From the IMG/VR virus record IMGVR_UViG_3300029610_000240: DNA of 64,000 nucleotides. One strand, written 5' to 3'. The notes under the pieces were generated by a model. It did no database searches, had not been told where the DNA came from, and worked only from the letters and a program-made list of their open reading frames with translations. A program made the position numbers and the translations under genes. Source of the stretch: a virus (Duplodnaviria; Heunggongvirae; Uroviricota; Caudoviricetes). Within the stretch, counting starts at the first letter, position 1; every line of letters begins with the position of its first letter. This document shows positions 11,304-56,352 of the stretch, in pieces.

Positions 11304-11324
11304 TAACAAAGGAGAATAATTTTT

Positions 11325-12146: not shown

Positions 12147-12154
12147 GAAGGATG

Positions 12155-12186: not shown

Positions 12187-12332
12187 ATATCTTTAGAATT
12201 TTAGAATAATTTCATAAAATACGCATAAAATAAAAAATATGACACATATTGATAAAAAATATGATTTTTAGTATAATAAAGGAGTGTTATTTCGTGAATT
12301 ACGAATTTAAAATTTCAAGGGGGAAAGAGAAA

Positions 12333-13451: not shown

Positions 13452-13465
13452 AAGGGGATAAAACA

Positions 13466-17023: not shown

Positions 17024-17433
17024 GTGAGGAACAATATCATAGTGCTTCACATTGTAAATATTTGATACAGTATCATATCATTTGGTGTCCCAAGTTCAGA
17101 TTTTCAGTATTACAAGGAAATGTCGATATCATTCTTAAACAGATATTACAGAAAATTTGTAATGATTATAAATACAAGATCAAAGCACTCGAAGTGATGC
17201 CAGATCATATACATATTTTCATAGATGTTCCGCAGACAGTTGCTCCTTGTGATGTTGTAAGAACTCTCAAAAGTATCAGTGCTATCGAATTATTTAAAGT
17301 ATTTCCAAAATTAAAACAGTTCTATGCGAAATGCGGAGTATTATGGCCAAGAGGATACTTTGTATCTACTGTCGGACATATAAGCGAAGCTACAGTAATT
17401 AAGTATATTGAGGAGCAGAAAAATGATAAGTGA
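17020..17433 (+). CDS. tnpA: IS200/IS605 Y1 HuH transposase TnpA (intact)
   Basis: 'YLIQYHIIWCPKFR', HuH 'MPDHIHIFI', and catalytic Tyr in 'GYFVSTVGHISEATVIKYIEEQ'. Confidence 0.85.
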   Translation: MSEEQYHSASHCKYLIQYHIIWCPKFRFSVLQGNVDIILKQILQKICNDYKYKIKALEVMPDHIHIFIDVPQTVAPCDVVRTLKSISAIELFKVFPKLKQFYAKCGVLWPRGYFVSTVGHISEATVIKYIEEQKNDK

Positions 17434-19460: not shown

Positions 19461-19772
19461 ATGAAACAGTATATCGGAATAAAGGTTGTTGCTGCGAGAC
19501 CAATGACAAGAGGTGACTATAATATCTTTCGAGGATGGCAGATTCCGGCAGACGAAGATCCTGCCGATGAAGGATATGTGATGAAATACGAGAATGGACA
19601 TGTGCAATGGTTGCCAAAGGATATGTTTGAGTCTGACTATAAAGAATATGACGAGAGTACCCTGCCGGCAACAGCTATTGGTATGGTAAGTTCAGATTAC
19701 AAAGAATGTTTTCAGGCAGAGTACAAGCAGCTCAGAATTCGTTATGAAAAATTGAAGAGAATGCGTCAATAA
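19461..19772 (+). CDS. hypothetical protein (about 103 aa)
   Basis: RBS 'gaaaggagac' before ATG 19461. No motif recognised. Its 3' end abuts the IscB element left end. Confidence 0.45.
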   Translation: MKQYIGIKVVAARPMTRGDYNIFRGWQIPADEDPADEGYVMKYENGHVQWLPKDMFESDYKEYDESTLPATAIGMVSSDYKECFQAEYKQLRIRYEKLKRMRQ

Positions 19773-19799
19773 CCCCGACCTACAGTAATAACTGTTGAG

Positions 19800-20044
19800 G
19801 TCGGAGCTTGTAAAAGCTCATATTGACTAGCCTAAGTTCTTCGAGAACTACGTTGTTTATGTTATCACACCTGCGAATGATACCATAGTTTGCAGCCTTG
19901 TGTAGGCTCTGTAAAAGTTCTGTGAGGTAGGAACGGTCAACCTAGTATGTTCGATCACGACAAGCATTTACAACATTGGCGAAGGGTAACAAACTTTCAA
20001 AAGAAAGGGACAGCACTTGAGAGTAGCTGTCAAAGGTAAAAACT
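19800..20044 (+). ncRNA. Putative IscB omega-RNA scaffold (structured, about 240 nt, immediately 5' of iscB)
   Basis: No ORF. Multiple local stems, for example 'gagcttgtaaaagctc' and 'ctgtaaaagttctgtgagg...'. The position matches the known IscB omega-RNA location overlapping the left end. Confidence 0.55.
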
Positions 20045-21319
20045 ATGAGAGTATTTGTATTCAATATGCGTGGCAGACCATTAATGCCATGCTCACAAAG
20101 AAAAGCCAGATTACTCCTAAGGGAAAATAAGGCTATGATTTATAAATATCATCCATTTACGATTCAGCTGACTTATACAACTGGAGAAACAAAGCAGGAC
20201 TGTCATATAGGTATAGACACAGGTTCTAAATATATAGGAGCTGCTGTCAGATCAGAGGATAAGGTTTTTTGGAAAGGCGAAATCGAGCTTCGACAGGATA
20301 TCAGGTCAAATCTTGATACGAAACGTATTTATCGCAGAAGCAGACGAAATCGTAAAACAAGATACCGAAAACCAAGGTTTTTAAATCGTAAGAGAAGAGA
20401 TGAATGGCTTCCACCTAGCTTGCAAAGCAGGATAAATCATACGTTTCATTGGATTGACACATTGAGTAGTTTGGTTCCAAACCCCATTCTTCACATAGAA
20501 GTCGGTAAGTTTGATGTAGCAAAGATGATAAATCCTGAAATCCATGGAGTTGACTATCAACATGGTCAGACATATGGTTTCTTCGATGAAAGGTATTTTG
20601 TTTTTGCAAGAGATAACTACACTTGTCAGTGCTGTGGAAAGTCAAAAAATAAGATTTTGAACACACATCATATCATCTACCGCAGTAATGGCGGAACAAA
20701 CAGAGTTGATAATCTTATTACAGTTTGCACAGATTGTCATACATCGCAGAATCACAGGAAAGGTGGAATATTCTATCAATGGCAGGAGCAGCATAAAAAG
20801 GTAAAACAATACAAAGAACCGCCGTTCATGAATACCTTACGTAAGAGGATATTTGTAGCGTATCCAGATGCTGAGATCACATATGGATCTGAAACAACAC
20901 CAAAACGTAAGGCGATGAAATTGGATAAGACGCACTATAATGATGCGATTGTCATTAGTGGTATCAATGAAATTAAAGAAAATCCTGAAGAATGGTTACT
21001 GATAAAACAATTCCGCAAAAAGAAACGCTCTTTACACGAGGCTACCGCCCGTAAGGGAAGAAAAAAGCCAAACAGAAATCAGACGCGTAACAGTAAGAAT
21101 ACGCCTTATTATAAAGGATTTTATCTTAACGATAAGGTTTCAGTTTTTGGAAAGAGTGGATATATTACAGGATTTACGAGCAATGCGGCATATATAAAAG
21201 ATGAGAACAATGACTATATTACTCTGCCAAACAAAACCTATAAACAGGTCAGCATCAATAAAATGAAGTTGGAATGTCATAACAACAATTGGCAGTACAT
21301 AATAAAAAATGCTGTGTAA
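20045..21319 (+). CDS. iscB: IscB, an RNA-guided nuclease ancestral to Cas9 (PLMP domain, split RuvC, HNH)
   Basis: PLMP motif 'RGRPLMPCS'. RuvC-I 'IGIDTGSKYIGAAV'. HNH 'CQCCGKSKNKILNTHHIIYRSNGGTNRVDNLITVCTDCH'. Length 424 aa. Confidence 0.85.
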   Translation: MRVFVFNMRGRPLMPCSQRKARLLLRENKAMIYKYHPFTIQLTYTTGETKQDCHIGIDTGSKYIGAAVRSEDKVFWKGEIELRQDIRSNLDTKRIYRRSRRNRKTRYRKPRFLNRKRRDEWLPPSLQSRINHTFHWIDTLSSLVPNPILHIEVGKFDVAKMINPEIHGVDYQHGQTYGFFDERYFVFARDNYTCQCCGKSKNKILNTHHIIYRSNGGTNRVDNLITVCTDCHTSQNHRKGGIFYQWQEQHKKVKQYKEPPFMNTLRKRIFVAYPDAEITYGSETTPKRKAMKLDKTHYNDAIVISGINEIKENPEEWLLIKQFRKKKRSLHEATARKGRKKPNRNQTRNSKNTPYYKGFYLNDKVSVFGKSGYITGFTSNAAYIKDENNDYITLPNKTYKQVSINKMKLECHNNNWQYIIKNAV

Positions 21320-23449: not shown

Positions 23450-23600
23450 CCTCTCCCATCTATAGAGGTGGGAGCTTCCCTAACCTCGGCAGGTTTGGTT
23501 CTCGTTCGATAGCACCAATGTGCTAAGCTTAAGCGAGCTAACCCCGTGTGTCCCACGGTTGTATTATGTGAAATTGTGGTTATGCAGTTACTATCCGCAT
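23450..23600 (-). ncRNA. Putative TnpB omega-RNA (reRNA) region overlapping the tnpB 3' end and the right-end hairpin
   Basis: Structured, ORF-free segment immediately 3' of tnpB on the minus strand. Local palindromes 'gcttaagc' and 'ccgtgtgtcccacgg'. Placement follows the known TnpB reRNA organisation. Confidence 0.45.
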
Positions 23601-24698
23601 TCCCTCATTTCTGATATTGATCGCTGCATTTACATCTCTGTCGTGATGGATTCCACACTGCGGACAATCCCACTGCCTGAGTGCAAGATCCTTTGTTTTC
23701 GCATTCTTGTAACCACAGGCAGAACACATCTGACTGCTTGCAAAAAATCTGTCCACTTTCACAAGTTTTTTCCCTTGTTCCTCAAGTTTATACTTTAGAA
23801 AGGCTGTGAACATTCCCCATCCATTATCCGAAACGGATTTTCCCAATTTCAACGACCGAGACATTGCTTTCATATCCAGATCCTCTATACATACACAATC
23901 ATAGGCATTGGTTATCTGTCTTGACTGCTTATGCAGAAAATCTTTTCGCTGATTGGAAACTTTTTCGTGAAGTTTGGCTACCTTGATTCTCTGTTTCCTG
24001 CGATTGTTCGAACCTTTCTGCATCTTGGAAAGTCTGCGTTGTTCTCTTGCTAATCTTTTCTCTGCGTTCCGGTAATATCCTGGATATGCCGGTTCATTGC
24101 CATTACTGTCACGATATAATCCGTGCATGGAAAAGTCCAGACCTAAAAAACTGTGCATCTCCTTTTCTGGTATCTGATCTTCATACTCAAAAAGGATACT
24201 TGCATAGTATCTTCCGCCTGGTGTCTGGCTGATCGTCACTGATTTCAACCTGTATCCCTTTGGAACAGATCTGTGCTGCTTTAATCGGACTTGTCCGATC
24301 TTTGGCAGTTTCAGATACCCATCCGATATGGTGATGTTGCCATTGATACATATGGTTGAATAGCTGTTTTTATGATTCTTTTTTGATTTGAACCTTGGAA
24401 ATCCTGTTTTCGGCCGTTTGAAAAAGTTCTGAAATGCTGTATCAAGGTGTCGGAGTGATTGCTGTAAGGATATACTATCGACTTCCCGCAAAAATGCGTA
24501 TTCTTCCGTTTTCTTCATTTCAGCCATTTCTTTCGCACAGACAGTATATGTTATATTTGTCTTGTTCTTCTTATACTGCCTGATCCTTCGATTAAGCCAA
24601 TGGTTGTACACCATTCTGACACAGCCGAAAGTCCTGGCAAACAGAATCATCTGCTCATTATTGGGATATATTCTGAATTTATATGCTCTGTTTGCCAT
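23580..24698 (-). CDS. tnpB: TnpB RNA-guided endonuclease (IS605 OrfB), with intact RuvC and zinc finger
   Basis: 'AYKFRIYPNNEQMILFARTFGCVRMVYNHWL' is the canonical TnpB N-terminus. RuvC-I 'LGLDFSMHGL'. Zinc finger plus RuvC-III 'CSACGYKNAKTKDLALRQWDCPQCGIHHDRDVNAAINI'. Confidence 0.9.
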   Translation of the reverse strand: MANRAYKFRIYPNNEQMILFARTFGCVRMVYNHWLNRRIRQYKKNKTNITYTVCAKEMAEMKKTEEYAFLREVDSISLQQSLRHLDTAFQNFFKRPKTGFPRFKSKKNHKNSYSTICINGNITISDGYLKLPKIGQVRLKQHRSVPKGYRLKSVTISQTPGGRYYASILFEYEDQIPEKEMHSFLGLDFSMHGLYRDSNGNEPAYPGYYRNAEKRLAREQRRLSKMQKGSNNRRKQRIKVAKLHEKVSNQRKDFLHKQSRQITNAYDCVCIEDLDMKAMSRSLKLGKSVSDNGWGMFTAFLKYKLEEQGKKLVKVDRFFASSQMCSACGYKNAKTKDLALRQWDCPQCGIHHDRDVNAAINIRNEGMRIVTA

Positions 24699-25992: not shown

Positions 25993-26667
25993 ATGAAAGA
26001 GGTTTTGAAGAAAATGAAAATAAAATGTAGTAAAAAATTAAAGAAAACGCATTTGAGTGATGGTGCTTATAATTTGCTAATCGAAGCTATTGTACTATAC
26101 GGCTTATTAATCAATCTTATAACATGTGCATTTTTTGCGGATTATGTAGCTATGATTCCATTAAGAGCATTGGTGATTGGATACCTGCTCATTTCAATTA
26201 TTGGAATAGTAATGTTAACCAGATATAAGGCTGTCCTTGTAAAATTTGTTGGATATAACATGATTGTGATTCCATGTGGAATAACATTATCAACCATCAT
26301 CAGTGATTATGCTGGTAGATCTGATCTTGTATTGCAAGCATTGATCATTACAACTATGATCACTTTTTGTATGATTACTCTTAGTTGCATATTCCCAAAG
26401 TTTTTTGTAGGTATTGGGAAAATGCTTTTTGTAGCATTAGTAGGAGTTGTTATTGCATATGTCGTATGCTATTTTGTCGGATTAAATACAGGAATTATAG
26501 CATGGATTTCGGCAATTATTTTTTCCTTATATATTGGATACGATTTTGTTTCAGCACAGCAGGCTAAACATACAGTTGCAAACGCAATTATTTACGGGGC
26601 TGATATTTATTTGGATCTGGTCAATCTTTTTGTTGAGATTTTAAGAATTTTAAAAGATAACGATTAA
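25993..26667 (+). CDS. Multi-pass membrane protein, possibly of the Bax-inhibitor-1/YccA family
   Basis: About 7 predicted TM helices, about 220 aa, C-terminal 'IIYGADIYLDLVNLFVEILRIL'. Family assignment tentative. Confidence 0.45.
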   Translation: MKEVLKKMKIKCSKKLKKTHLSDGAYNLLIEAIVLYGLLINLITCAFFADYVAMIPLRALVIGYLLISIIGIVMLTRYKAVLVKFVGYNMIVIPCGITLSTIISDYAGRSDLVLQALIITTMITFCMITLSCIFPKFFVGIGKMLFVALVGVVIAYVVCYFVGLNTGIIAWISAIIFSLYIGYDFVSAQQAKHTVANAIIYGADIYLDLVNLFVEILRILKDND

Positions 26668-32467: not shown

Positions 32468-32904
32468 GGTACCACAATAAGAGGGAAATATGAAATAACA
32501 GGTGTTCTACTATGTAGAAAATATTATATTGTTTTAAATGAGAATGGGAAAGATCATACATTTGAGATTCCTAAAAGCCAATACAATTCAATAAAGCTGA
32601 ACAGTCGTGTATTGTGTAAGATAAATTATAAAGAAAATAAAATTACAAAAATTAAAATGATCGATAAATCAAGAATTTTATATAATCCTTTCGTTCAAAA
32701 ACTTAGATAACGTAACTATAAAGAGATTCATGATGATGACTTAATTGATGATTTAAGACAAAGTTTTAAAAATATGTAACAGATATATGTAAAAACAAAT
32801 GGCAGTTACATAATGCGTAAGAATAAGAATGTATCGAATAAGTCTATATAAGTAGAATCTACCAGGTGGTAGAAAATATTAAAACTAACAGGAGATAATA
32901 TTTC

Positions 32905-35137: not shown

Positions 35138-36085
35138 ATGAGTATTAAAGATGCGATATACAAAAAAATTATTTTTCATATTATCAATGATAATAGTTTT
35201 TTGTATAAACAAGCCATAAAAGAGTATGTATCACATAAGACTTTATCATTGGTTCAGAAAAGTATTCAGGACAAAAACATGAGTTCTATTATCTTAGATT
35301 ATGATTGGCAGATTTATAATGTTGTGGAAAATAAACAGATCCTTGATCAAACAAATATTCAGATTTTAAATTTTACACAACAATTAAATCCGAAAGCCGA
35401 AAATGAGGAATTTATTGGATATAATCCCTTTGATTATATTCATAGTAATTTAGAAATCAAAGAAGCCATTGATAATATAATTATCCGTAAAGATTCTGTG
35501 AACGATGTATGTGAAAAAATTTTGCTAGAAAAAATATTCCAAAACATGATGCAAGAACCTGTTCCAAAACGTAACTTTACTTTTGTTTTAGATGTTCTAA
35601 ATAATTGGGAAAAACATGGAATGCCTCATTTTGATTGGGGCTTTGGTCGGGAAAAACATGATGTATTTGAGGTACTTGATTTTACTACAGTAAATAATTT
35701 GATCGAAGATATTAAAATATTTTGTGATGATAAAATCGAATTTGTTGACAAGGAAAAACTTGAGATTGGTATGTTAAGAAAAGAAAAAACTACATTATTT
35801 ATAGAAATTCCGTCAGAGAATAATACGTATGATGCAATTATACGCATATTAATTCAACAATTATGGCAGGAATTAGCTTTAAATCAATACGATAATTATG
35901 GAAACGATGAATTCCCACATTTTGTAAGAATGATAACTCCATTATTTGAGGAAACGACAGTTAATATAAGAGATGGGTTGCTGCCAACATATGAACAATT
36001 ATTTCGATGGGCTCATTTCACGAGACGGCCGGAAGATTATAATTTAAATATTTCGGTAGTCTCAATGTATGATAATGCATTTTAG
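35138..36085 (+). CDS. hypothetical protein (315 aa)
   Basis: ORF with RBS 'aaaggagaagctaaccatg'. Confidence 0.5.
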   Translation: MSIKDAIYKKIIFHIINDNSFLYKQAIKEYVSHKTLSLVQKSIQDKNMSSIILDYDWQIYNVVENKQILDQTNIQILNFTQQLNPKAENEEFIGYNPFDYIHSNLEIKEAIDNIIIRKDSVNDVCEKILLEKIFQNMMQEPVPKRNFTFVLDVLNNWEKHGMPHFDWGFGREKHDVFEVLDFTTVNNLIEDIKIFCDDKIEFVDKEKLEIGMLRKEKTTLFIEIPSENNTYDAIIRILIQQLWQELALNQYDNYGNDEFPHFVRMITPLFEETTVNIRDGLLPTYEQLFRWAHFTRRPEDYNLNISVVSMYDNAF

Positions 36086-36133
36086 TAAACTTGTCTTTAA
36101 AAAGGAAATAATCATAATAGAAATGAACCAACT

Positions 36134-36279
36134 GTTTTGTAATCGTGTAAAAGCACTTAAATATGCTGTAGAAGATGTTTTGTTACTGTGCAACGGAAAT
36201 ATGTCTAAATGATTTAATTTATTACTACTTTTTATTCCTTTGTTTTGTAACCGTGTAACGGAGACATGTCTAAATGGTC
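36134..36279 (+). CRISPR. Mini CRISPR array U0: three 38-nt 'GTTTTGTAACCGTGTAACGGAGACATGTCTAAATGGTC'-type repeats (the first two degenerate) with one clear 27-nt spacer
   Basis: Repeats at 36134-36171, 36177-36214 and 36242-36279. Spacer 'taatttattactactttttattccttt' at 36215-36241. Confidence 0.6.
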
Positions 36280-36356
36280 AAATTATTTTGCACGGTGCGT
36301 AAAAATAAGAAATTATCGAATAGGCTCGTTAAAACGAGAGCTGCCGTGTGGCAGTA
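36280..36356 (+). ncRNA. tracrRNA-like module cognate to U0 (anti-repeat, 'AAAAATAAG' nexus, two hairpins)
   Basis: 'aaattattttgCACGGtgcgtaaaaataagaaattatcgaataggctcgttaaaacgagagctgccgtgtggcag'. CACGG pairs with the repeat's CCGTG. The nexus and hairpins are SpCas9-tracr-like. Confidence 0.6.
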
Positions 36357-36499
36357 AATCTAAGCTACATCAATTTCAAGATTATAATTTGGGAGGAGAA
36401 AATGTTTGGGAAAATTAATGTTTTTTATTTATTGTTGGCTATATATTTGTATTATTTGTTATATTCTTGCAGCCAAGAACAAGAAAGAAGGTGTAGTGT

Positions 36500-37183
36500 A
36501 TGATTAATTTTTCAGTAGTTCATAATTCTTTATTCATTTTGCTTAGTATCATCTTTATATTATCTACAATAAATCCGCTCAAACATCGCTACGAACCAAT
36601 CATAGATATTGAGCCGCAGATCATAAAAATTAAAGATGGAAAATATGTAAAAATTGATTATATCATATACTCTCAGATTATAGATTCAAAATTGTATCGT
36701 AAGAAAAAGAATGAAAATATAATGAAATTAATGAGGATGAAATCATTATATATATTAGAACGTATTATTCGAAATATGCCATACAAAACAATTGTTGATC
36801 AAAGAGAATATATCGAAAATAATCTACAGACACAATTAAATGATAGTTTAAGAAAATATGGAATTGGAGTAGAACGTGTTGCTTTAAAAAATATTTTGGA
36901 AGATTCAGTTCTTGTATCTTGTGTAGATAAAAGCTCGAATGAAACTCATAAATGTACTTCCGAAGAAGTAGGAGATATTCCAAGTTATGTTGATGATCAT
37001 GTACGGACAGATTATATATCTATTTTTCAATATAATGATCAGATAATCAAATCAAGAAATAAAGATATTTATGATCAAGTAGAAGTTGGGAAAAAATACA
37101 ATGCTAGAATTAAGATTCTAATACATAATGATCAAACAGAAAATTATGATGTGGCAGAAATTATATCCGGAATTAAAAAATGA
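36500..37183 (+). CDS. hypothetical membrane-anchored protein (227 aa)
   Basis: N-terminal TM 'FSVVHNSLFILLSIIFILSTI'. Confidence 0.45.
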   Translation: MINFSVVHNSLFILLSIIFILSTINPLKHRYEPIIDIEPQIIKIKDGKYVKIDYIIYSQIIDSKLYRKKKNENIMKLMRMKSLYILERIIRNMPYKTIVDQREYIENNLQTQLNDSLRKYGIGVERVALKNILEDSVLVSCVDKSSNETHKCTSEEVGDIPSYVDDHVRTDYISIFQYNDQIIKSRNKDIYDQVEVGKKYNARIKILIHNDQTENYDVAEIISGIKK

Positions 37184-45959: not shown

Positions 45960-46126
45960 AATATTGTAATTTTGTAATAAATATATATTAATGTGGGGGC
46001 ATTACATAAATAATGAAATAAAAAGGCGTATTATATTGAAAAAAGTATCAAAAAGTGTTAGCATATTACATATAGACAAGAGAATTCAGAAAAACAAAAT
46101 GTGTATTTTATAAGGAGGATACTTAC

Positions 46127-49100
46127 GTGCAGAATGGATTTTTAGGAATAACTGTTAGTAGTGAACAGGTTGGTTGGGCAGTTACAAATCCCAAATATGA
46201 GTTAGAACGTGCATCTCGAAAAGATTTATGGGGTGTAAGGCTTTTTGATAAAGCAGAAACAGCGGAAGATCGAAGAATGTTCCGTACAAACAGACGATTA
46301 AATCAGAGAAAAAAGAACAGAATACATTATCTTAGAGATATTTTCCATGAGGAAGTAAATCAAAAAGATCCTAACTTTTTTCAGCAATTAGATGAAAGCA
46401 ATTTCTGTGAAGATGATCGTACTGTAGAGTTTAATTTTGATACTAATCTTTATAAGAATCAGTTTCCAACAGTGTATCATTTAAGAAAATATCTAATGGA
46501 AACAAAAGATAAACCAGATATTCGTCTGGTATACTTAGCTTTTTCAAAATTTATGAAAAATCGAGGACATTTCTTATACAAAGGAAATCTTGGAGAGGTT
46601 ATGGACTTTGAAAATTCCATGAAAGGCTTTTGTGAAAGTTTAGAGAAATTTAATATTGACTTCCCTACATTATCAGATGAACAGGTAAAAGAAGTCCGAG
46701 ATATCTTATGTGATCATAAAATTGCTAAAACTGTGAAAAAGAAAAACATCATTACTATTACAAAAGTAAAAAGTAAGACAGCAAAAGCATGGATTGGACT
46801 GTTTTGTGGTTGCAGCGTTCCTGTTAAAGTATTATTTCAGGATATCGATGAAGAAATTGTAACGGATCCAGAAAAAATCTCATTTGAAGATGCTTCTTAT
46901 GATGATTGTATTGCAAATATTGAAAAGGGTGTCGGTATTTATTATGAAGCTATTGTTTCTGCAAAGATGCTTTTTGACTGGTCTATCCTGAATGAAATTT
47001 TAGGTGACCATCAGTTATTAAGTGATGCAATGATCGCAGAATACAATAAGCATCATGATGATTTAAAGCGTTTACAGAAGATCATTAAAGGAACTGGCAG
47101 TAGAGAATTATATCAGGATATCTTTATTAATGATGTTTCTGGAAATTATGTATGCTACGTTGGTCATGCAAAAACAATGAGTAGTGCAGATCAGAAACAG
47201 TTTTATACATTTTTAAAAAATCGATTAAAAAATGTGAATGGTATTTCATCAGAAGATGCAGAATGGATTGATACAGAGATTAAAAACGGTACTTTACTAC
47301 CAAAACAGACAAAACGTGATAACAGTGTTATTCCGCATCAATTACAGTTAAGGGAATTTGAATTAATTCTTGATAACATGCAGGAAATGTATCCATTCTT
47401 AAAAGAAAACAGAGAAAAATTATTAAAAATCTTCAATTTCGTTATTCCTTATTATGTAGGTCCGCTAAAGGGCGTTGTAAGAAAAGGAGAGAGTACAAAC
47501 TGGATGGTGCCTAAAAAAGATGGTGTGATTCATCCATGGAATTTCGATGAAATGGTAGACAAAGAAGCGTCTGCGGAATGTTTTATTTCCCGAATGACAG
47601 GAAATTGTAGTTATTTATTTAATGAAAAAGTTCTTCCAAAGAATTCTCTTCTTTATGAGACATTTGAGGTATTAAATGAGCTAAATCCATTAAAGATCAA
47701 TGGAGAACCTATCAGCGTGGAATTAAAACAGAGAATTTATGAACAGCTTTTCTTGACAGGGAAAAAAGTTACAAAAAAATCTCTGACAAAATATCTTATC
47801 AAGAATGGCTATGACAAAGATATTGAATTATCAGGTATTGATAATGAATTTCACAGCAATCTAAAATCTCATATTGATTTTGAGGATTACGATAATCTAT
47901 CTGATGAAGAAGTTGAACAGATTATTCTTAGAATTACAGTATTTGAAGATAAGCAGCTGTTAAAAGATTATTTAAATCGCGAGTTTGTAAAGCTCTCTGA
48001 GGATGAGAGAAAACAGATTTGCTCATTATCTTATAAAGGATGGGGAAACTTATCAGAAATGCTATTAAACGGTATTACTGTAACAGATTCCAATGGTGTA
48101 GAAGTTTCTGTAATGGATATGCTGTGGAATACAAACTTAAATCTGATGCAGATCTTAAGTAAGAAATATGGATATAAAGCAGAAATCGAACATTACAATA
48201 AAGAACATGAAAAAACCATTTATAATCGTGAAGATTTGATGGATTATTTAAATATTCCACCGGCTCAGCGTAGGAAGGTAAATCAGCTGATTACGATAGT
48301 AAAATCTCTCAAAAAGACATATGGAGTTCCAAATAAGATTTTCTTCAAAATAAGCAGAGAACATCAGGATGATCCAAAGAGAACTTCATCCAGAAAAGAA
48401 CAGCTAAAATATTTATACAAATCCTTAAAATCAGAAGATGAAAAACATCTTATGAAAGAGCTTGATGAATTGAACGATCATGAATTATCCAATGATAAAG
48501 TTTATCTTTATTTTCTACAGAAAGGACGCTGCATTTATTCTGGCAAGAAATTAAATCTTTCAAGATTAAGAAAATCTAATTATCAGAATGATATTGACTA
48601 CATTTATCCATTATCTGCAGTAAATGATCGTTCTATGAATAATAAGGTATTAACGGGAATCCAGGAGAATCGAGCAGACAAGTATACCTATTTTCCAGTT
48701 GATTCAGAAATTCAGAAAAAAATGAAGGGATTTTGGATGGAACTGGTTCTGCAGGGATTTATGACAAAGGAGAAATACTTCCGATTATCCAGAGAAAATG
48801 ATTTTTCAAAGAGCGAACTTGTTAGCTTTATTGAACGTGAAATTTCAGATAATCAGCAAAGTGGAAGAATGATTGCTTCTGTATTACAGTATTATTTCCC
48901 TGAATCAAAGATTGTATTTGTAAAAGAAAAGCTGATTTCTTCCTTTAAGAGGGATTTCCATTTAATTAGTAGTTATGGTCACAATCATTTACAAGCTGCA
49001 AAAGATGCTTATATTACGATTGTAGTTGGAAATGTATATCATACAAAATTTACAATGGACCCAGCAATCTATTTTAAGAATCATAAGAGAAAAGATTATG

Positions 49101-50065
49101 ATCTGAACCGATTATTCTTAGAAAATATCAGCAGAGATGGACAGATTGCATGGGAAAGTGGTCCATATGGGTCAATTCAGACGGTTCGAAAAGAATATGC
49201 TCAAAACCATATTGCTGTTACAAAAAGAGTCGTGGAAGTAAAAGGCGGCTTATTTAAGCAGATGCCATTAAAAAAAGGACATGGCGAATATCCATTAAAA
49301 ACCAATGATCCTAGATTTGGCAATATCGCACAGTATGGAGGGTATACGAATGTCACAGGTTCCTATTTTGTATTAGTAGAATCAATGGAGAAAGGGAAAA
49401 AACGTATTTCTTTAGAATATGTTCCAGTATATCTTCATGAGCGTTTAGAGGATGATCCTGGACATAAACTGTTAAAAGAATATCTGGTTGATCACAGAAA
49501 ACTTAATCATCCAAAGATTTTACTTGCAAAAGTAAGAAAAAACTCATTACTTAAGATTGACGGTTTTTATTATCGTTTAAATGGTCGAAGTGGAAATGCT
49601 CTTATCCTTACAAATGCAGTGGAATTGATCATGGATGACTGGCAGACAAAAACAGCAAACAAGATTTCTGGATACATGAAACGCAGAGCTATTGATAAGA
49701 AAGCAAGGGTTTATCAAAATGAATTCCATATTCAGGAATTAGAACAGCTTTATGATTTTTATTTAGATAAATTAGAGAATGGTGTTTATAAAAATCGTAA
49801 GAATAATCAGGCTGAATTAATTCACAACGAAAAAGAACAGTTTATGGAACTCAAGACAGAAGATCAGTGTGTATTATTGACTGAGATTAAAAAGCTTTTT
49901 GTATGTTCTCCAATGCAGGCAGACCTTACATTGATTGGTGGCAGCAAACACACAGGAATGATTGCTATGTCAAGCAATGTTACAAAAGCAGATTTTGCAG
50001 TCATTGCGGAAGATCCTTTAGGACTTAGAAACAAAGTAATTTATTCTCATAAAGGTGAGAAGTAA
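46127..50065 (+). CDS. cas9: Type II Cas9 homolog (1312 aa) with substituted catalytic residues in RuvC-I (Asp to Thr), RuvC-II (Glu to Lys) and HNH (His to Tyr); predicted nuclease-dead
   Basis: N-terminal 'FLGITVSSEQVGWAV' (compare 'IGLDIGTNSVGWAV'), 'TVYHLRKYL', 'DIRLVYLAFSKFMKNRGHFL'. RuvC-II 'KIFFKISREHQ' (compare 'NIVIEMARENQ'). HNH 'NDIDYIYPLSAVNDRSMNNKVL' (compare '[21 protein letters not shown]'). RuvC-III region 'SYGHNHLQAAKDAYI'. RBS 'aaggagg' before GTG 46127. Confidence 0.9.
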   Translation: MQNGFLGITVSSEQVGWAVTNPKYELERASRKDLWGVRLFDKAETAEDRRMFRTNRRLNQRKKNRIHYLRDIFHEEVNQKDPNFFQQLDESNFCEDDRTVEFNFDTNLYKNQFPTVYHLRKYLMETKDKPDIRLVYLAFSKFMKNRGHFLYKGNLGEVMDFENSMKGFCESLEKFNIDFPTLSDEQVKEVRDILCDHKIAKTVKKKNIITITKVKSKTAKAWIGLFCGCSVPVKVLFQDIDEEIVTDPEKISFEDASYDDCIANIEKGVGIYYEAIVSAKMLFDWSILNEILGDHQLLSDAMIAEYNKHHDDLKRLQKIIKGTGSRELYQDIFINDVSGNYVCYVGHAKTMSSADQKQFYTFLKNRLKNVNGISSEDAEWIDTEIKNGTLLPKQTKRDNSVIPHQLQLREFELILDNMQEMYPFLKENREKLLKIFNFVIPYYVGPLKGVVRKGESTNWMVPKKDGVIHPWNFDEMVDKEASAECFISRMTGNCSYLFNEKVLPKNSLLYETFEVLNELNPLKINGEPISVELKQRIYEQLFLTGKKVTKKSLTKYLIKNGYDKDIELSGIDNEFHSNLKSHIDFEDYDNLSDEEVEQIILRITVFEDKQLLKDYLNREFVKLSEDERKQICSLSYKGWGNLSEMLLNGITVTDSNGVEVSVMDMLWNTNLNLMQILSKKYGYKAEIEHYNKEHEKTIYNREDLMDYLNIPPAQRRKVNQLITIVKSLKKTYGVPNKIFFKISREHQDDPKRTSSRKEQLKYLYKSLKSEDEKHLMKELDELNDHELSNDKVYLYFLQKGRCIYSGKKLNLSRLRKSNYQNDIDYIYPLSAVNDRSMNNKVLTGIQENRADKYTYFPVDSEIQKKMKGFWMELVLQGFMTKEKYFRLSRENDFSKSELVSFIEREISDNQQSGRMIASVLQYYFPESKIVFVKEKLISSFKRDFHLISSYGHNHLQAAKDAYITIVVGNVYHTKFTMDPAIYFKNHKRKDYDLNRLFLENISRDGQIAWESGPYGSIQTVRKEYAQNHIAVTKRVVEVKGGLFKQMPLKKGHGEYPLKTNDPRFGNIAQYGGYTNVTGSYFVLVESMEKGKKRISLEYVPVYLHERLEDDPGHKLLKEYLVDHRKLNHPKILLAKVRKNSLLKIDGFYYRLNGRSGNALILTNAVELIMDDWQTKTANKISGYMKRRAIDKKARVYQNEFHIQELEQLYDFYLDKLENGVYKNRKNNQAELIHNEKEQFMELKTEDQCVLLTEIKKLFVCSPMQADLTLIGGSKHTGMIAMSSNVTKADFAVIAEDPLGLRNKVIYSHKGEK

Positions 50066-50106
50066 GTTTTCATATTTGTTCGGAAAATTCATAATCATAT
50101 CGAACG

Positions 50107-50259
50107 GCTTTGGAACTGCGTAGAACATGATATGTCTTATGGCTAAAAGAATTACAGGTGCATATTTTGAACTGTGTAAAACATGGCATATGGGAGAATT
50201 GGCAACGACTGGAACAGAACACAGTTTTGAAACTGTATAAAACATGACATGTCTTATGG
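50107..50259 (+). CRISPR. Mini CRISPR array U1: 3 repeats (consensus GTTTTGAAACTGTATAAAACATGACATGTCTTATGG) and 2 spacers (22 and 29 nt), immediately 3' of cas9
   Basis: Repeats at 50107-50142, 50165-50194 (degenerate) and 50224-50259. Spacers 'ctaaaagaattacaggtgcata' and 'agaattggcaacgactggaacagaacaca'. Confidence 0.7.
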
Positions 50260-50385
50260 TTCAAATTATTTATACAGTACGTGAAAATAAGAAATTATCG
50301 AATAAACTCGTTTAGACGAGAACTGCTAGAGGCAGTAATTGCAGAAAATGTCATGAACCCCAAGCGACTTCGTCGGCCGGGGGTT
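50260..50385 (+). ncRNA. tracrRNA-like module cognate to U1, plus a terminator
   Basis: 'ttcaaattatTTATACAGTacgtgaaaataagaaattatcgaataaactcgtttagacgagaactgctagaggcag'. TATACAGT is an exact complement of the repeat's ACTGTATA. Terminator 'ccccaagcgacttcgtcggccgggggttt'. Confidence 0.7.
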
Positions 50386-50958: not shown

Positions 50959-51117
50959 GTTATTTTGAGAAATGATTGCAAATGTGATCGTAGCGTACCT
51001 TACTTCACAGCTTAGTTTTGGAACTATGTAAAATCAAATGATTGCAAATGGGCAGAGAGAAAATTTGAAAAATTGTCTGTGTTTTGGAACTATGTAAAAT
51101 CAAATGATTGCAAATGG
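50959..51117 (+). CRISPR. Mini CRISPR array U2: degenerate repeat plus 2 perfect 37-nt repeats 'GTTTTGGAACTATGTAAAATCAAATGATTGCAAATGG', with 2 spacers (28 and 29 nt)
   Basis: Repeats at 50959-50986 (3' half only), 51015-51051 and 51081-51117. Spacers 'atcgtagcgtaccttacttcacagctta' and 'gcagagagaaaatttgaaaaattgtctgt'. Confidence 0.75.
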
Positions 51118-51191
51118 TCAAAGTAATTGCATGGCGTGTAAAAATAAGAATTTATCGAAATAATTTGCTCCGGCGAAATCTGCAAGATGCA
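51118..51191 (+). ncRNA. tracrRNA-like module cognate to U2
   Basis: 'tcaaagtaattgCATGGcgtgtaaaaataagaatttatcgaaataatttgctccggcgaaatCTGCAagaTGCAG'. Confidence 0.65.
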
Positions 51192-51285
51192 GAAATCAAG
51201 CTGATCGATGCTTTACATATTTATCTATTTCAATATTTCTTCAACCATATACATTGATCAGCTTTAATAAAAAGAATTAAAATTA

Positions 51286-51446
51286 CGAAAATAAAATTGA
51301 ATGATTCCAATGGATAGTCGAAAAAGAATTGGATAGTCGACGGGTTTTAGAATAGTGTAAAATTGAATGATTCTAAGGGTTAGATACTCCACTAGATAGC
51401 AAAGTACTTGTTTTAGAATAGTGTAAAATTAAATGATTCTAAGGGG
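51286..51446 (+). CRISPR. Mini CRISPR array U3: degenerate repeat plus 2 repeats 'GTTTTAGAATAGTGTAAAATTGAATGATTCTAAGGG(G)', with 2 spacers (30-31 nt)
   Basis: Repeats at 51286-51313 (3' half), 51344-51379 and 51410-51446. Spacers 'atagtcgaaaaagaattggatagtcgacgg' and 'ttagatactccactagatagcaaagtactt'. Confidence 0.75.
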
Positions 51447-51527
51447 TCAAATAGATTCTATACAATGCGTGAAAATAAGAAACTTATCGAACAAACCTGT
51501 GTAGGAAACAGGAACTGCCGAGGGCAG
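51447..51527 (+). ncRNA. tracrRNA-like module cognate to U3
   Basis: 'tcaaatagATTCTAtacaatgcgtgaaaataagaaacttatcgaacaaaCCTGTgtaggaaACAGGaaCTGCCgagGGCAG'. ATTCTA pairs with the repeat's TAGAAT. Confidence 0.65.
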
Positions 51528-51575
51528 TAAAAATAAAAAGCATATTTTTATTATGTTTTATTTTATGATGAAGAG

Positions 51576-51823: not shown

Positions 51824-53755
51824 ATGGAAATAGATTACAGAAAAGAATTAAATAAGAGTCAATATGAAGCTGTTACAACGACAGAAGGACCAGTCCTAAT
51901 CCTTGCCGGTGCCGGAACTGGCAAAACTCGTTGTATGGTATATCGTGTGGCATATCTGATTGAAAAAGGCGTGTCACCCAATAATATCTTATTATTGACC
52001 TTTACAAATAAAGCAGCAAATGAAATGAAGCAAAGGGCAGCAGATATGCTTGATGAACGATGTAGTCAAATTACTGCATGTACATATCATTCATTCTGTG
52101 CAAAGATGCTTCGCAAATATTCACAACTGATTGGAATTCAATCAGATTATACAATTATTGATCCGGGAGATTGTGCAGATATCATATCGATCATCGAAAC
52201 AGAACACGGTATGGATAAAGTAAAAGATTTTCCAAGATCATCTCAACTGGTATCAGCACATAGCAAAGCCTTAAATACGAATCAGTCATTAGAGGATACT
52301 TTGTTTGATATGCTCGGTAAATGGAAGTATATGGAAATCGAAAGATTCATTCCAGATATAAAGAAAATCTTAGCGGATTATCAATCATACAAAAAACAAA
52401 ACAACATGATGGATTATGATGATTTGCTAATCAATTTTATATCTGTATTGAAAAGAAACCCTTCTATAAAGAATAAATTAGCTGATATTTATCAGTATAT
52501 TATGATCGACGAATATCAGGATTCTAATTATTTACAGGAAAAGATTATTTTTATGTTACGTGAAAAGAATCGTAACTTAGCAGTGGTAGGTGATGATTAC
52601 CAATGCATCTATGGATTTAGAGGAAGTATGGTAGAAAATATCATTAATTTTCCACAAAAGATGTCCGGATGTAAAGTTGTTTACTTAACACAGAATTATC
52701 GCAGCAATCAAGAGATCATGGATTTATCCAATATTGTTATGAAAAAACATTCACTGGAAGGTTTTTTTAAAAAGCTTGTCGCAACTCATGTGGCCAATAT
52801 TCAGCCATTGCTAGTTCGATCAGAGGACGAGGGCGAAGAAGCTTCTTATATTTTAAATAAGATTATGGCATTACATGATGAAGAAGAGATTCCGTATCAT
52901 GAAATTTGTGTTCTTGAAAGAAGTTCTTATCATTCTGTAAGACTAGAAGCACTTTTAAATAAAATGAAAATCCCATATGACAAATATGGTGGAATGAAGT
53001 TTTTTGATTATGATCATATCAAAAACTTCTTATGCTTTTTGCGATGTCAGATAAATCCACATGATGAAATTGCGTGGTTTCGACTATTAAAGTTATTTGA
53101 TGGTATTGGAAATGTTTATGCCAGAAATATCGCAGCAACATGTAAAACTCTTGGATTAGAGGGACTTGTTCAACACAAATACATAAAAAGAAAATTTCAG
53201 CCGGATCTTGAAAATTTAAAGAGTTTTATTGAAAAGCTTAATGATCAAGATTTTCAGATCGAATTGCAAAGCATTAAATCATTTTATTCACGTTTAATGG
53301 ACATTACATTAATGCTGATGAAAACATCGGAGAAGAAACGTAGGGAGCTTGCTAGAGCAAATAAACAAGCGGTCCGCGATTTTGATACACTGATTGAAAT
53401 GGCAGATGGATATGATTCTCCAGTGACATTTCTGGAAGAAATAATGCTTGAAGCCAGTCCTCAGAAAGAGGAAGAGGAAGATCGAATGGTTATATCTACA
53501 ATTCATTCCGCAAAAGGCTTAGAGTTTCACTCTGTTTTTGTTATGAACTGCGTAGATACAATGTTTCCATCTACAGATAAAGATCAGATTGGAACAGTAG
53601 AAGATAACGAAGAGTTGAGATGCTTCTATGTGGCAATAACACGGGCAAAAGAACGATTATTTTTAATGGCACCGAAATATATAGCCAAATTTGGATGTGT
53701 TGAAGAGGGAATTATCTCCCATTTTATTAGTGATGTTTTTCAAGTAAAGGAGTAA
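51824..53755 (+). CDS. UvrD/PcrA/Rep-family superfamily-1 DNA helicase
   Basis: Walker A 'ILAGAGTGKT'. Motif IV 'QNYRSNQEI'. Motif VI 'VISTIHSAKGLEFHSVFVM'. 'VGDDYQCIYGFRG' is motif III-like. Confidence 0.85.
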   Translation: MEIDYRKELNKSQYEAVTTTEGPVLILAGAGTGKTRCMVYRVAYLIEKGVSPNNILLLTFTNKAANEMKQRAADMLDERCSQITACTYHSFCAKMLRKYSQLIGIQSDYTIIDPGDCADIISIIETEHGMDKVKDFPRSSQLVSAHSKALNTNQSLEDTLFDMLGKWKYMEIERFIPDIKKILADYQSYKKQNNMMDYDDLLINFISVLKRNPSIKNKLADIYQYIMIDEYQDSNYLQEKIIFMLREKNRNLAVVGDDYQCIYGFRGSMVENIINFPQKMSGCKVVYLTQNYRSNQEIMDLSNIVMKKHSLEGFFKKLVATHVANIQPLLVRSEDEGEEASYILNKIMALHDEEEIPYHEICVLERSSYHSVRLEALLNKMKIPYDKYGGMKFFDYDHIKNFLCFLRCQINPHDEIAWFRLLKLFDGIGNVYARNIAATCKTLGLEGLVQHKYIKRKFQPDLENLKSFIEKLNDQDFQIELQSIKSFYSRLMDITLMLMKTSEKKRRELARANKQAVRDFDTLIEMADGYDSPVTFLEEIMLEASPQKEEEEDRMVISTIHSAKGLEFHSVFVMNCVDTMFPSTDKDQIGTVEDNEELRCFYVAITRAKERLFLMAPKYIAKFGCVEEGIISHFISDVFQVKE

Positions 53756-53789: not shown

Positions 53790-53965
53790 TGGATTTGAAT
53801 CCATGTAAAAATGTAAAGCAAATGATTCCAAATGGCAATCTTCTCGAATTGTCGTGTAGGCAAAGTTTTGAAACCATGTAAAAAAATGATTCCAAATGGG
53901 TATGCATTGGTGTTTGAAGCGTTTGTGTGTTTTGGAACCATGTAAAAGCAAATGATTCCAAATGG
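53790..53965 (+). CRISPR. Mini CRISPR array U4: 3 repeats (consensus GTTTTGGAACCATGTAAAAGCAAATGATTCCAAATGG; first degenerate) and 2 spacers of 29 nt
   Basis: Repeats at about 53790-53835, 53865-53899 and 53929-53965. Spacers 'caatcttctcgaattgtcgtgtaggcaaa' and 'gtatgcattggtgtttgaagcgtttgtgt'. Confidence 0.75.
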
Positions 53966-54043
53966 TTAAAAGCAGATTACATGGTGTGTCAAAATAAGAA
54001 CTTATCGAATAGATCTATATAAATGGAATCTGCCAGGTGGCAG
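53966..54043 (+). ncRNA. tracrRNA-like module cognate to U4
   Basis: 'ttaaaagcagattaCATGGtgtgtcaaaataagaacttatcgaatagatctatataaatggaatCTGCCaggtGGCAG'. CATGG pairs with the repeat's CCATG. Confidence 0.65.
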
Positions 54044-54051
54044 AAAAAAAC

Positions 54052-54128
54052 TGAAAAAGCTGATCAATAATAACTGTTGTTACCATAATATTAATTTATG
54101 TTTTTGTATTTTGTCTATTGATCAGCTT
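54052..54128 (+). terminator. Long-stem terminator after module U4 (16-bp inverted repeat 'aaaaagctgatcaata ... tattgatcagcttttt')
   Basis: Inverted repeat at 54052-54067 and 54113-54128, followed by a T-run, directly upstream of the next gene. Confidence 0.5.
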
Positions 54129-54133
54129 TTTGC

Positions 54134-55411: not shown

Positions 55412-55537
55412 ATATCATCAAAGAGGTTTTGGTTAACTAAAGGTTGATTATCGGTATATCATTGTTCGGTGTCTGTAGACAGCATTTTTTCAAATCTATA
55501 GTTGTTATAAAATAAGAGACACTTTCATGTATAGTGG

Positions 55538-55594
55538 AGTTTAGTTTCAGAAGTTTATAAAAACAGATAACTATTAATGATTATCTGTTTCATG
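55538..55594 (+). repeat. Single extended CRISPR-like repeat of module U5 (related to the U6 repeat, carrying an internal palindrome AACAGATAA/TTATCTGTT)
   Basis: 'gtttagtttcagaagtttataaaaacagataactattaatgattatctgtttcatgg' against the U6 repeat 'gctttagaagtctataaaacagaatcattgtcaatgg'. Confidence 0.45.
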
Positions 55595-55658
55595 GATTGT
55601 GTAAAAATAAGCAAATTAGCGAATATGCTCGTTGAAACGAGAGCTGTTAGATAACAGC
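55595..55658 (+). ncRNA. tracrRNA-like module U5; the second hairpin is a variant (GCTGTTAGATAACAGC)
   Basis: 'attgtgtaaaaataagcaaattagcgaatatGCTCGttgaaaCGAGaGCTGTtagatAACAGC'. Confidence 0.5.
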
Positions 55659-55710
55659 TAAAAATGTAACTATATAAATTAATTTGTAAATTATAGGGAG
55701 GACTATTTTA

Positions 55711-56091: not shown

Positions 56092-56250
56092 GATACAGAA
56101 GAATCATTGTCGATGTTAAACATATTATGTGAAACATTATTGTCAGGCTTTAGAAGTCTATAAAACAGAATCATTGTCAATGAGATCAAATTCTTTATGA
56201 CAACGCAATACAGCTTTAGAAGTCTATAAAACAGAATCATTGTCAATGGT
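56091..56250 (+). CRISPR. Mini CRISPR array U6: degenerate repeat plus 2 repeats 'GCTTTAGAAGTCTATAAAACAGAATCATTGTCAATGG', with 2 spacers of 30 nt
   Basis: Repeats at 56091-56116 (3' half), 56147-56183 and 56214-56250. Spacers 'ttaaacatattatgtgaaacattattgtca' and 'agatcaaattctttatgacaacgcaataca'. Confidence 0.75.
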
Positions 56251-56325
56251 CAAATAAGCAGACTGCGTAAAAATAAGAATTTTATCGATATTGCTCGTGT
56301 AGTCGAGAACTGCCAAGTGGCAGCA
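56251..56325 (+). ncRNA. tracrRNA-like module cognate to U6
   Basis: 'tcaaataagcAGACTgcgtaaaaataagaattttatcgatattGCTCGtgtagtCGAGaaCTGCCaagtGGCAG'. AGACT pairs with the repeat's AGTCT. Confidence 0.65.
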
Positions 56326-56352
56326 ACATTTATAATAAAAAGGAGGAATTAT

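Follow-up and report, generated by a model that had tools for sequence, protein, structure and literature searches.

What is the role of a guide-RNA cassette that is separated by 9.8 kb from the cas9 gene it would serve? The question is raised by a 64,000-nucleotide (nt) stretch of DNA recorded as a virus of the Caudoviricetes (IMG/VR record IMGVR_UViG_3300029610_000240; the whole stretch is called the window here), in which a cassette that we call U0 occupies positions 36134-36357 of the plus strand, with the start of cas9 downstream of it on the same strand. [quoted passage not shown] We consider it likely that U0 is a self-contained guide-RNA cassette for a Cas9 that binds without cutting and is used against rival mobile elements. 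It belongs to the same mini-array-plus-tracrRNA family as the cassettes that lie downstream of cas9.

Architecture of U0 and its sister cassettes

Read from its 5' end, U0 consists of a degenerate first repeat (R1), a 10-nt remnant, a complete repeat (R2), a spacer, a terminal repeat (R3), a linker, an anti-repeat and a tracrRNA tail (Table 1). It has the direct repeats of about 36 nt and the spacer of about 30 nt that define an array, though R1 is degenerate and there is one full spacer. R2 and R3 are 82% identical over 44 nt with a period of 65 nt, and the 38-nt string GTTTTGTAACCGTGTAACGGAGACATGTCTAAATGGTC has a single exact occurrence in the window, at 36242-36279 on the plus strand, where shuffled sequences lead one to expect none. 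The upper stem is formed by TTGCACGGT (36288-36296) and the repeat bases ACCGTGTAA (36250-36258), the lower stem by AAAAT (36302-36306) and GTTTT (36242-36246). Because the terminal repeat and the anti-repeat lie on one strand and only 10 nt apart, the repeat is fused in cis to its tracrRNA. The tail at 36299-36357 matches the Rfam family RF03055, RAGATH-30, over model positions 1-59 of 59; the match scores 78.6 bits (E = 2.5e-13), where the gathering score is 59.5. The combination of repeat, anti-repeat and tail at U0 is real and far beyond chance.

An earlier, sequence-only reading of this DNA had described a repeat-spacer-repeat-tracr unit with its own repeat variant and a matching anti-repeat, placed between genes 35138..36085 and 36500..37183. 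That description holds: both open reading frames (ORFs) exist, the repeat variant is exact and unique, repeat and anti-repeat covary from cassette to cassette beyond chance, and the architecture is slightly richer than described by the extra R1 and the 10-nt remnant. The same reading counted U0 as a seventh guide module, about 10 kb upstream of cas9, in a set spread over at least 20 kb. The distance and the spread stand, as the set extends over 23.6 kb (32732-56326); the count does not, since the window holds eight cassettes. RAGATH-30 matches above threshold begin at 32817, 36299, 50281, 51138, 51469, 53988, 55601 and 56267, all on the plus strand, and a repeat of the GTTTT type and an anti-repeat stand before every one of these tails. 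Protein-coding genes lie between the cassettes, which therefore cannot be parts of one array, as had also been proposed. Cassettes 32732 and 55515 (we name each sister cassette by its first position) consist of a single guide, one repeat and the tracrRNA, and the other six have two or three repeats, the first of them 5'-truncated or degenerate.

The pairing that joins repeat to tracrRNA is supported across the set. In minimum-free-energy folds, repeat bases 1-5 and about 9-17 pair with the anti-repeat in six of the eight cassettes, U0 included. When the eight are aligned on a four-helix structure, 93.4% of cells are paired, against 35-47% with slid partners; compensatory changes occur at 13 of the 25 pairs, a result that none of 500 shuffles equalled, and four of the nine pairs in the upper stem between repeat and anti-repeat are compensatory. 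RNAalifold recovered the same four helices unprompted from 14 cassettes, which included other lineages and the short allele of U0 described below, with compensatory changes at 14 of 22 pairs. The invariant columns of the alignment are those of the lower stem, the bulge and the nexus, and the variable ones those of the upper stem and the hairpins, which is the pattern expected of Cas9 guide RNAs from the modules of the single-guide RNA (sgRNA) of SpCas9, the Streptococcus pyogenes enzyme.

The tail itself carries the name of a family without an assigned role, RF03055 being typed in Rfam merely as 'Gene; sRNA'. Each of the eight cassettes has a tail that matches the full model above its gathering score, and the model spans the nexus and hairpins only, without the anti-repeat or the repeat. 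Its consensus, GUAAAAAUAAG..UUAUCGAA (...UAUCGAA) with two hairpins, is arranged, from the nexus on, like a tracrRNA of the SpCas9 type. Every examined relative of the window cas9 has one to six RAGATH-30 copies adjoining the gene, and this genomic context identifies RAGATH-30 as a tracrRNA tail. It could still be argued that RAGATH-30 is a small RNA unrelated to Cas9 and that the neighbouring repeats are coincidental. The bare Rfam description would suit that view, as would a literature search of incomplete coverage in which no paper mentioned 'RAGATH-30' and none tied it to tracrRNA; the name is also absent from the main text of the paper that introduced the RAGATH motifs. We regard coincidence as extremely improbable, given that eight of eight copies stand directly 3' of a CRISPR-like repeat on the strand of cas9, each with a covarying anti-repeat, and given the company that the family keeps in the relatives and the nexus-like form of its consensus.

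Table 1. Positions of the U0 components, the other cassettes, a promoter-like site, cas9 and the catalytic motifs of its product (substitutions in SpCas9 numbering)
Feature	Position	Strand	Remark
U0 R1, degenerate first repeat (GTTTTGTAATCGTGTAAAAGCACTTAAATATGC)	36134..36166	+	kept in 10/10 related contigs
U0 10-nt remnant between R1 and R2 (TGTAGAAGAT)	36167..36176	+	invariant in every copy seen
U0 R2, 36-nt repeat	36177..36212	+	repeat family D12
U0 spacer, 29 nt, AT-rich (TTTAATTTATTACTACTTTTTATTCCTTT)	36213..36241	+	window, L011 and L012 only; absent in 8 other contigs
U0 R3, terminal 36-nt repeat	36242..36277	+	exact unique match
U0 linker from terminal repeat to anti-repeat (TCAAATTATT)	36278..36287	+	TCAAA-like motif common to most cassettes
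U0 anti-repeat: upper stem TTGCACGGT, bulge GCGT, lower stem AAAAT	36288..36306	+	minimum-free-energy fold; covariation
U0 tracrRNA tail: nexus-like AAAAATAAGAAATTATCGAA, hairpins 36325-36338 and 36340-36355	36299..36357	+	Rfam RAGATH-30 match
Promoter-like site upstream of U0: TTGTCT, 16 nt, CATAAT	36091..36118	+	consensus match only
Cassette 32732, upstream of U0: 31-nt guide, single repeat 32763-32798, matching anti-repeat, tail 32817-32875	32732..32875	+	RAGATH-30 71.4 bits
Cassette 50105, directly after cas9: three repeats (one truncated), tail 50281-50338	50105..50338	+	
Cassette 50967: first repeat 5'-truncated, two spacers, tail 51138-51195	50967..51195	+	
Cassette 51292: first repeat 5'-truncated, two spacers, tail 51469-51530	51292..51530	+	
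Cassette 53800: two spacers (53899-53928 with perfect protospacers in L027 and L028), tail 53988-54046	53800..54046	+	
Cassette 55515, single guide: 29-nt guide, one repeat, tail 55601-55660	55515..55660	+	guide invariant in 12 copies
Cassette 56095: first repeat 5'-truncated, two spacers, tail 56267-56326	56095..56326	+	
cas9, 1312 aa, SpCas9-like domain layout, canonical catalytic residues replaced	46127..50065	+	
Cas9 RuvC-I: canonical GLDxG replaced by GITVS	D10T		
Cas9 RuvC-II: canonical IEMARE replaced by FKISRE	E762K		
Cas9 RuvC-III: canonical HHAHDAY replaced by LQAAKDAY	H983A		D986 kept
Cas9 HNH: canonical DVDHIVP replaced by DIDYIYP	H840Y		
Cas9 HNH: canonical SDNVP replaced by YTYFP	N863Y		

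The Cas9 of the element

The window Cas9 corresponds to WP_044924278.1 of A. hadrus, whose 90% cluster has 2780 members, and its Pfam domains are the REC, PI, bridge-helix and HNH domains of the SpCas9 type. Its catalytic positions were read from an alignment with canonical relatives and SpCas9. Where type II-A enzymes have intact RuvC (D10, E762, H983, D986) and HNH (H840, N863) sites, this protein keeps D986 alone, and D10 and H840, the two positions mutated in laboratory nuclease-dead Cas9 (dCas9), are both changed. The same replacements are found in relatives down to 71% identity, one lineage (variant P0020) keeping the HNH histidine. Sixteen variants that are 96-99% identical (P0003-P0018) have no HNH domain at all; their in-frame deletions, which have at least seven different boundaries, correspond to residues of about 741-905 of the window Cas9 (an example is the gene at 10001-13471 of the related locus L001) and indicate that the loss of HNH has been recurrent and independent. 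L001 with its HNH-less cas9 still has six cassettes and spacers that match their target perfectly. Pairwise ratios of nonsynonymous to synonymous substitution (dN/dS) within the clade are 0.06-0.09, so the protein is maintained by purifying selection.

From its residues, the window Cas9 is very probably unable to cut DNA in the canonical way. Since the canonical RuvC and HNH residues are missing, 'guide' in the present context probably means a guide for binding and not for cutting, and binding is further favoured over cleavage because the HNH domain is so often absent and yet the gene is under strong purifying selection. The opposite possibility, that the cassettes guide a catalytically active Cas9 whose unusual residues are compensated elsewhere, so that cleavage proceeds in the ordinary way, appears very unlikely to us. 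It would account for the spacer turnover and the perfect, motif-flanked protospacers described below, which resemble classical immunity, and the histidine of P0020 could be cited for it. Against it, replacements at the HNH general base and at three of four catalytic RuvC positions extend across the clade, down to the 71% identity given above, and many copies without HNH, such as L001, keep arrays whose spacers match a target perfectly.

Taken together with the architecture, a binding-only Cas9 lends itself to the following scheme for U0. In a transcript through the cassette the terminal repeat would fold back on the anti-repeat to give lower stem, bulge, upper stem, nexus and two hairpins, and the preceding spacer would then take exactly the place that the guide has in an engineered single-guide RNA; the two halves of this RNA may afterwards be separated by RNase III or may stay joined. 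The U0 RNA would load the Cas9 encoded downstream, and the loaded protein would seek matches of about 30 nt followed by N-R-A-A in rival mobile elements. The likely outcome would be binding, with silencing or blocking of the target, and not cleavage. We infer each of the steps that concern U0 itself, namely its transcription, its folding in vivo, the loading of Cas9, interference by binding only and the existence of any target.

Spacers, targets and the standing of U0

The case for a role against rival elements comes from the sister cassettes. About 15 near-identical copies of the element yielded 32 unique spacers, mostly of 30 nt. Turnover was followed in the window, L001 and L029-L038; among the 12 element copies that share an identical UvrD-like protein, cassettes 50967, 51292, 53800 and 56095 differ in their spacers, with four to seven variants each. 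In these cassettes the 5' spacer is usually shared, the spacer next to the tracrRNA is variable or extra, and the 5'-most repeat is truncated or degenerate, which suggests that new units enter beside the tracrRNA, opposite to the usual leader-proximal polarity. The remaining guides behave in another manner. Copies of the second spacer of cassette 50105 (50195-50223; also in L029-L036) differ by point mutations only, concentrated at the 3' end that is proximal to the protospacer-adjacent motif, or PAM (CAGAACACA, CGGAGCATA, CTGAGCATA), and the guides of cassettes 55515 and 32732 are invariant among copies. The guides of these three cassettes look like fixed guides, and no target was found for them.

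A metagenome scan with spacer 53899-53928 returned perfect protospacers, free of flanking repeats, in two human-gut contigs (L027 and L028). Three further spacers, taken from other copies of the element, match the same target element of about 5 kb; the four spacers come from two cassettes, all match at 30/30 or 31/31 positions, and the protospacers lie at 7482-8964 of L028 and 270-1437 of L027. Their 3' flanks are TAAAAT, TAAACC, TGAAAT and GAAAAT, all of the form N-R-A-A, which suggests that N-R-A-A is the PAM of the system. Three of the four protospacers are in sense orientation, and one is placed upstream of rep, 52-81 nt before its start codon. The products encoded by the target are Rep, an FtsK/SpoIIIE-like protein, a Tn916-type integrase and two small proteins. 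It stands beside DUF4130 and radical-SAM genes, a pairing that recurs a few genes from the integrase end of L003, and it has the look of a small element that integrates, can probably be mobilised, and competes with the large one or exploits it. Judged by these spacers and their matches, the cassette system is active elsewhere than at U0.

The history of U0 can be followed through the SPFH gene just downstream of it, which is indexed in 10,016 collection blocks. Comparison with the ten related contigs returned for this gene gives 11 copies, the window included. In each of the ten the U0 tail stands 201 nt upstream of the SPFH gene, even where the upstream gene is a different one (L013), so that the placement of U0, a point that the sequence-only reading had wished to see compared in related genomes, is the same in these contigs. 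Cassette 32732 is present in three of the ten. At the corresponding site of L001, the related element with the HNH-less cas9, there is a different gene and no U0. Public gene calls put a 94-aa ORF across the U0 cassette in L007-L010 and L014-L016 (9635-9919), which is almost certainly a spurious call on a non-coding RNA cassette.

U0 occurs as two alleles. The long one, with R2, spacer and R3, is found in the window, L011 and L012, and the short one, found in the other eight contigs, has R1, the 10 nt, a single repeat and the tracrRNA. The single repeat is a hybrid that runs through R2 positions 1-21 and continues as R3 positions 22-36; the short allele is therefore the product of an R2-R3 recombination that removed the spacer. 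Its only guide-like sequence is the 10-nt remnant with the 3' part of R1. The tails of the two alleles differ only at loop, unpaired or G-U-compatible positions, and both alleles retain the pairing of repeat with anti-repeat and both tail hairpins. All 11 copies agree in the 27 nt that precede the first full repeat, and in L013 R1 is changed in its 5' half only.

Searches on behalf of the U0 spacer led to chance matches alone. The 13 window spacers, concatenated and compared by blastn with plasmids and phages at E up to 1, gave no match, and exact 20-mers of three spacers, that of U0 among them, gave none in IMG/VR. A 20-mer of the U0 spacer had ten matches in GTDB genomes, which we set aside as chance: they lie in unrelated taxa, have 3-8 mismatches in the remaining 9 nt and lack an N-R-A-A flank. 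Three candidate self-targets were likewise rejected, those at 26014-26042 (23/29) and at 46012-46040 upstream of cas9 (22/29) having seed mismatches and lying at the level expected by chance for an AT-rich 29-mer, and that at 12099-12127 having a 13-nt match at the 3' (seed) end, about what chance would give, and no motif.

For the expression of U0 there is a promoter-like site upstream (Table 1), and a similarly placed CATAAT stands before the first repeat of cassette 50105. Independent transcription of U0, which the sequence-only reading had put forward, is plausible from these motifs, and read-through from or into the neighbouring genes of the same strand is equally possible. The 3' half of the repeat was considered as an internal promoter of the type II-C kind and rejected, the hexamers CTAAAT, GCAAAT, CCAAAT and GTCAAT being poor -10 matches that the promoter scan did not call. 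Two of the sister cassettes are followed by long inverted repeats, AAGCTGATCGATG...CATTGATCAGCTT at about 51199-51265 and AAAAAGCTGATCAATA...TATTGATCAGCTTTTT at about 54057-54130, both on the plus strand and both possible bidirectional terminators; U0 has nothing comparable.

Several observations weigh against U0 as a working guide for a binding-only Cas9. Its spacer lacks the turnover of the four sister cassettes and has no protospacer in the window, in annotated phages and plasmids, in IMG/VR or in GTDB genomes, and eight of the ten related contigs carry the spacer-less allele. Promoter-like sites are no commoner in the region than in shuffles, and no terminator was found after U0. Folded as a single sequence, U0 is no more stable than shuffles (z = -1.15), so that the structural case rests on covariation. 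The binding-only mode of interference would follow from the catalytic residues alone, and targets in sense orientation, as three of the four protospacers are, make weak roadblocks inside genes for the dCas9 of S. pyogenes. Finally, no cas1, cas2 or csn2 was found among the window ORFs scanned or in the Pfam lists of L001-L016, L029-L038, L043 and L044, which leaves the acquisition of spacers unexplained.

Some of these points would also suit a decaying relic: an old mini-array now deprived of working spacers and of function, with activity confined to the cassettes downstream of cas9. Its first repeat has degenerated and a 10-nt stump comes after it, its spacer is gone from most contigs by recombination, it has none of the spacer diversity of the sister cassettes and no target was found for it, and L001 does without it. 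We nevertheless think decay to this degree unlikely, because none of the other seven cassettes reaches the RAGATH-30 score of U0, because the changes between its alleles spare pairing and hairpins and fall only at loop or G-U-compatible positions, and because it persists at the same site even beside another upstream gene.

The invariance of the sequence before the first full repeat brings in a further explanation, in which U0 would share with the fixed-guide cassettes 32732, 50105 and 55515 the role of a single guide for regulation, comparable to tracr-L or scaRNA (small CRISPR-associated RNA), and its invariant and possibly short guide ...ATATGCTGTAGAAGAT would repress a conserved gene of the element or the host instead of serving defence. 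The 27 nt in question are unchanged in 11 of 11 copies, even beside an R1 with a diverged 5' half; the guides of cassettes 32732 and 55515 are invariant too, a nuclease-dead Cas9 would suit regulation, and there is precedent in tracr-L and in phage sgRNAs that silence the cas9 promoter (bioRxiv 10.1101/2020.05.21.102756; 10.64898/2026.06.01.729453). However, the seeds of the invariant guides, taken as their 3' 9-12 nt, have no match beside an NNAA flank in the window or the related loci, the region upstream of cas9 included, and a regulatory role of this kind seems to us quite unlikely.

We therefore return to U0 as a guide cassette for a binding-only Cas9 and prefer to describe it as a 'cold' one, the least array-like of the set, since it shows no turnover, has frequently lost its only spacer and has no detectable target. 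A minority of copies retain its one old spacer and most have none, and of all steps in the scheme the present activity of U0 is the least certain. U0 may be dormant, it may work as a fixed guide from the invariant upstream sequence, or it may be on its way out.

The mobile element and its relation to known systems

The window encodes LPXTG/SpaA adhesins (a look-up of a 1480-aa LPXTG protein returned no record), a restriction-modification pair, two ATLF-domain proteins, a UvrD-like helicase and a cell-wall hydrolase, together with IS200-family transposases accompanied by genes for TnpB and, after a HEARO RNA, IscB. The HEARO RNA (RF02033, 112 bits), which is the guide RNA of IscB, lies at 19765-19994 (+) directly upstream of an IscB-type ORF with RRXRR and HNH domains at 20045-21319 (+). 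The TnpB gene, with OrfB_IS605 and a Cas12f1-like TNB domain, is at 23580-24698 (-). One IS200-type Y1 transposase gene is at 17020-17433, with a 542-aa ORF after it that weakly matches a transposase, and a second is at 7056-7493 (+). The window thus holds three kinds of RNA-guided protein, IscB, TnpB and Cas9. The helicase, of the UvrD/REP family, is encoded amid the cassettes at 51824-53755 (+); the gene likewise adjoins cas9 in L003, a relative at 89%, and is lacking in L005 and L040, relatives at 73-74%. It recalls the DinG of nuclease-free type IV-A systems, a putative link only.

In L001, L003, L029-L034, L036 and L038 the block terminates beside host genes, with Xis and integrase of the Tn916 type, and sortases lie upstream of it. 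At the right end of the window the position of the HTH_17 Xis-like gene is kept, the Tn916-type integrase is missing, as in L037, and a different, zinc-ribbon tyrosine integrase is encoded on the opposite strand at 57770-59011 (cf. L037), so the right boundary of the element varies between copies. No conjugation genes (type IV secretion ATPase, coupling protein, relaxase) were found in the stretches inspected, and the word 'conjugative' would be presumed. The classification of the window as a phage was rejected: PHROGs gave only transposases, methylases and an Ig-domain match, and the right end of its relatives is a Tn916-type Xis/Int pair. Megablast of positions 32001-57000 against annotated plasmids and phages gave no match. 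A search of GTDB genomes with Cas9 alone gave 15 pattern matches, none of them confirmed.

Compared with the canonical type II-A system of S. pyogenes, the locus has familiar parts: 36-nt GTTTT repeats, spacers of about 30 nt, a lower stem, bulge and upper stem, a nexus of the form AAAAUAAG..., 3' hairpins, and a Cas9 with SpCas9-type REC and PI domains. It differs in being borne by a mobile element, in having no cas1, cas2 or csn2 nearby and both nuclease sites replaced, and in its eight dispersed mini-arrays, each fused in cis to its own covarying tracrRNA, in place of one array. It is thus a locus with type II-A parts that lacks two defining features of the type, the adaptation genes and the intact nuclease sites. 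A chromosomal relative with a 41% identical cas9 (L039) has the full order cas9-cas1-cas2-csn2, an ordinary array of eight repeats and no RAGATH-30 match, and in the lineage of L040, 74% identical, an array of seven repeats with tracrRNA follows cas9 directly and two more units bear tracrRNAs.

Several described systems share some of these traits. The tracr-L of S. pyogenes and the single-guide RNAs of phages (vsgRNAs) use guides of 11-14 nt against the cas9 promoter (bioRxiv 10.1101/2020.05.21.102756; 10.64898/2026.06.01.729453), and the latter, carried by phages without cas9, act as anti-CRISPR decoys (bioRxiv 10.64898/2026.06.01.729453). As in our cassettes, repeat and tracrRNA lie in one transcript with an sgRNA-like fold and an intervening loop, and the vsgRNAs are also borne by mobile elements; here, in contrast, the spacers have 29-31 nt and turn over, the element has its own cas9, another mobile element is targeted and no match to the cas9 promoter was found. 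CampyICE1 of Campylobacter is an integrative conjugative element with a lone Cas9 and three short arrays against competing plasmids (bioRxiv 10.1101/2021.06.01.446523), and so resembles the present element in its Cas9 without adaptation genes, its several short arrays and its spacers against rival mobile elements. It is a type II-C system of a Gram-negative host, and neither a tracrRNA for each array nor an inactivated nuclease is reported for it. A phage Cas9 with inactivated RuvC motifs and its own tracrRNA has been proposed as an anti-CRISPR sponge for host CRISPR RNAs (PMC11656645). It too belongs to a mobile element, but it is of type II-C and arrays with turnover are not described for it, whereas here both nuclease sites are affected and the arrays are the element's own and dynamic. 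Type IV-A3 systems on conjugative plasmids have no adaptation module and no effector nuclease, and gain spacers in trans (bioRxiv 10.1101/2023.06.23.546257). They likewise serve conflicts between mobile elements, though with a class 1 multi-subunit effector and a DinG helicase and without Cas9 or tracrRNA. The closest analogies to the binding mode proposed here would be these plasmid-borne type IV-A3 systems and laboratory dCas9. A literature search of incomplete coverage returned no report of dispersed arrays with their own covarying tracrRNAs and a doubly inactivated Cas9, which leaves novelty unproven, and one for a natural nuclease-dead Cas9 on conjugative elements also returned none, an absence that is not proof.

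A wider reading, for and against which we find the balance about even, would run as follows. A widespread element of A. hadrus carries a natural dCas9 that has lost both nuclease activities and repeatedly shed HNH, with up to eight dispersed mini-array cassettes, each fused to its own co-evolving RAGATH-30 tracrRNA. The cassettes gain spacers on the tracrRNA side without adaptation genes on the element, and silence or block small integrative elements that parasitise the host element or compete with it, U0 being a dormant cassette or a fixed regulatory guide. The gain from U0 itself is smaller: it carries the set of cassettes to the upstream side of cas9 and gives an example of how a cassette may lose its spacer.

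If this reading is true, spacers are acquired without cas1-cas2 on the element, and apparently at the 'wrong' end of the array, and one Cas9 accepts eight different pairs of repeat and anti-repeat. The orphan Rfam family RAGATH-30 would gain a function as tracrRNA, and the orthogonal repeat and anti-repeat variants of the cassettes, together with the N-R-A-A motif, could serve multiplexed CRISPR interference. The element would provide a class 2 counterpart to the nuclease-free type IV systems of mobile elements, and would itself rank among the commonest elements in the human gut microbiome, to judge from the 2780 members of its cas9 cluster and the more than 10,000 collection blocks that hold its SPFH gene. 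The single-guide RNA, the multiplexed guide cassette and the nuclease-dead Cas9, all three products of laboratory engineering, would then already coexist in nature.

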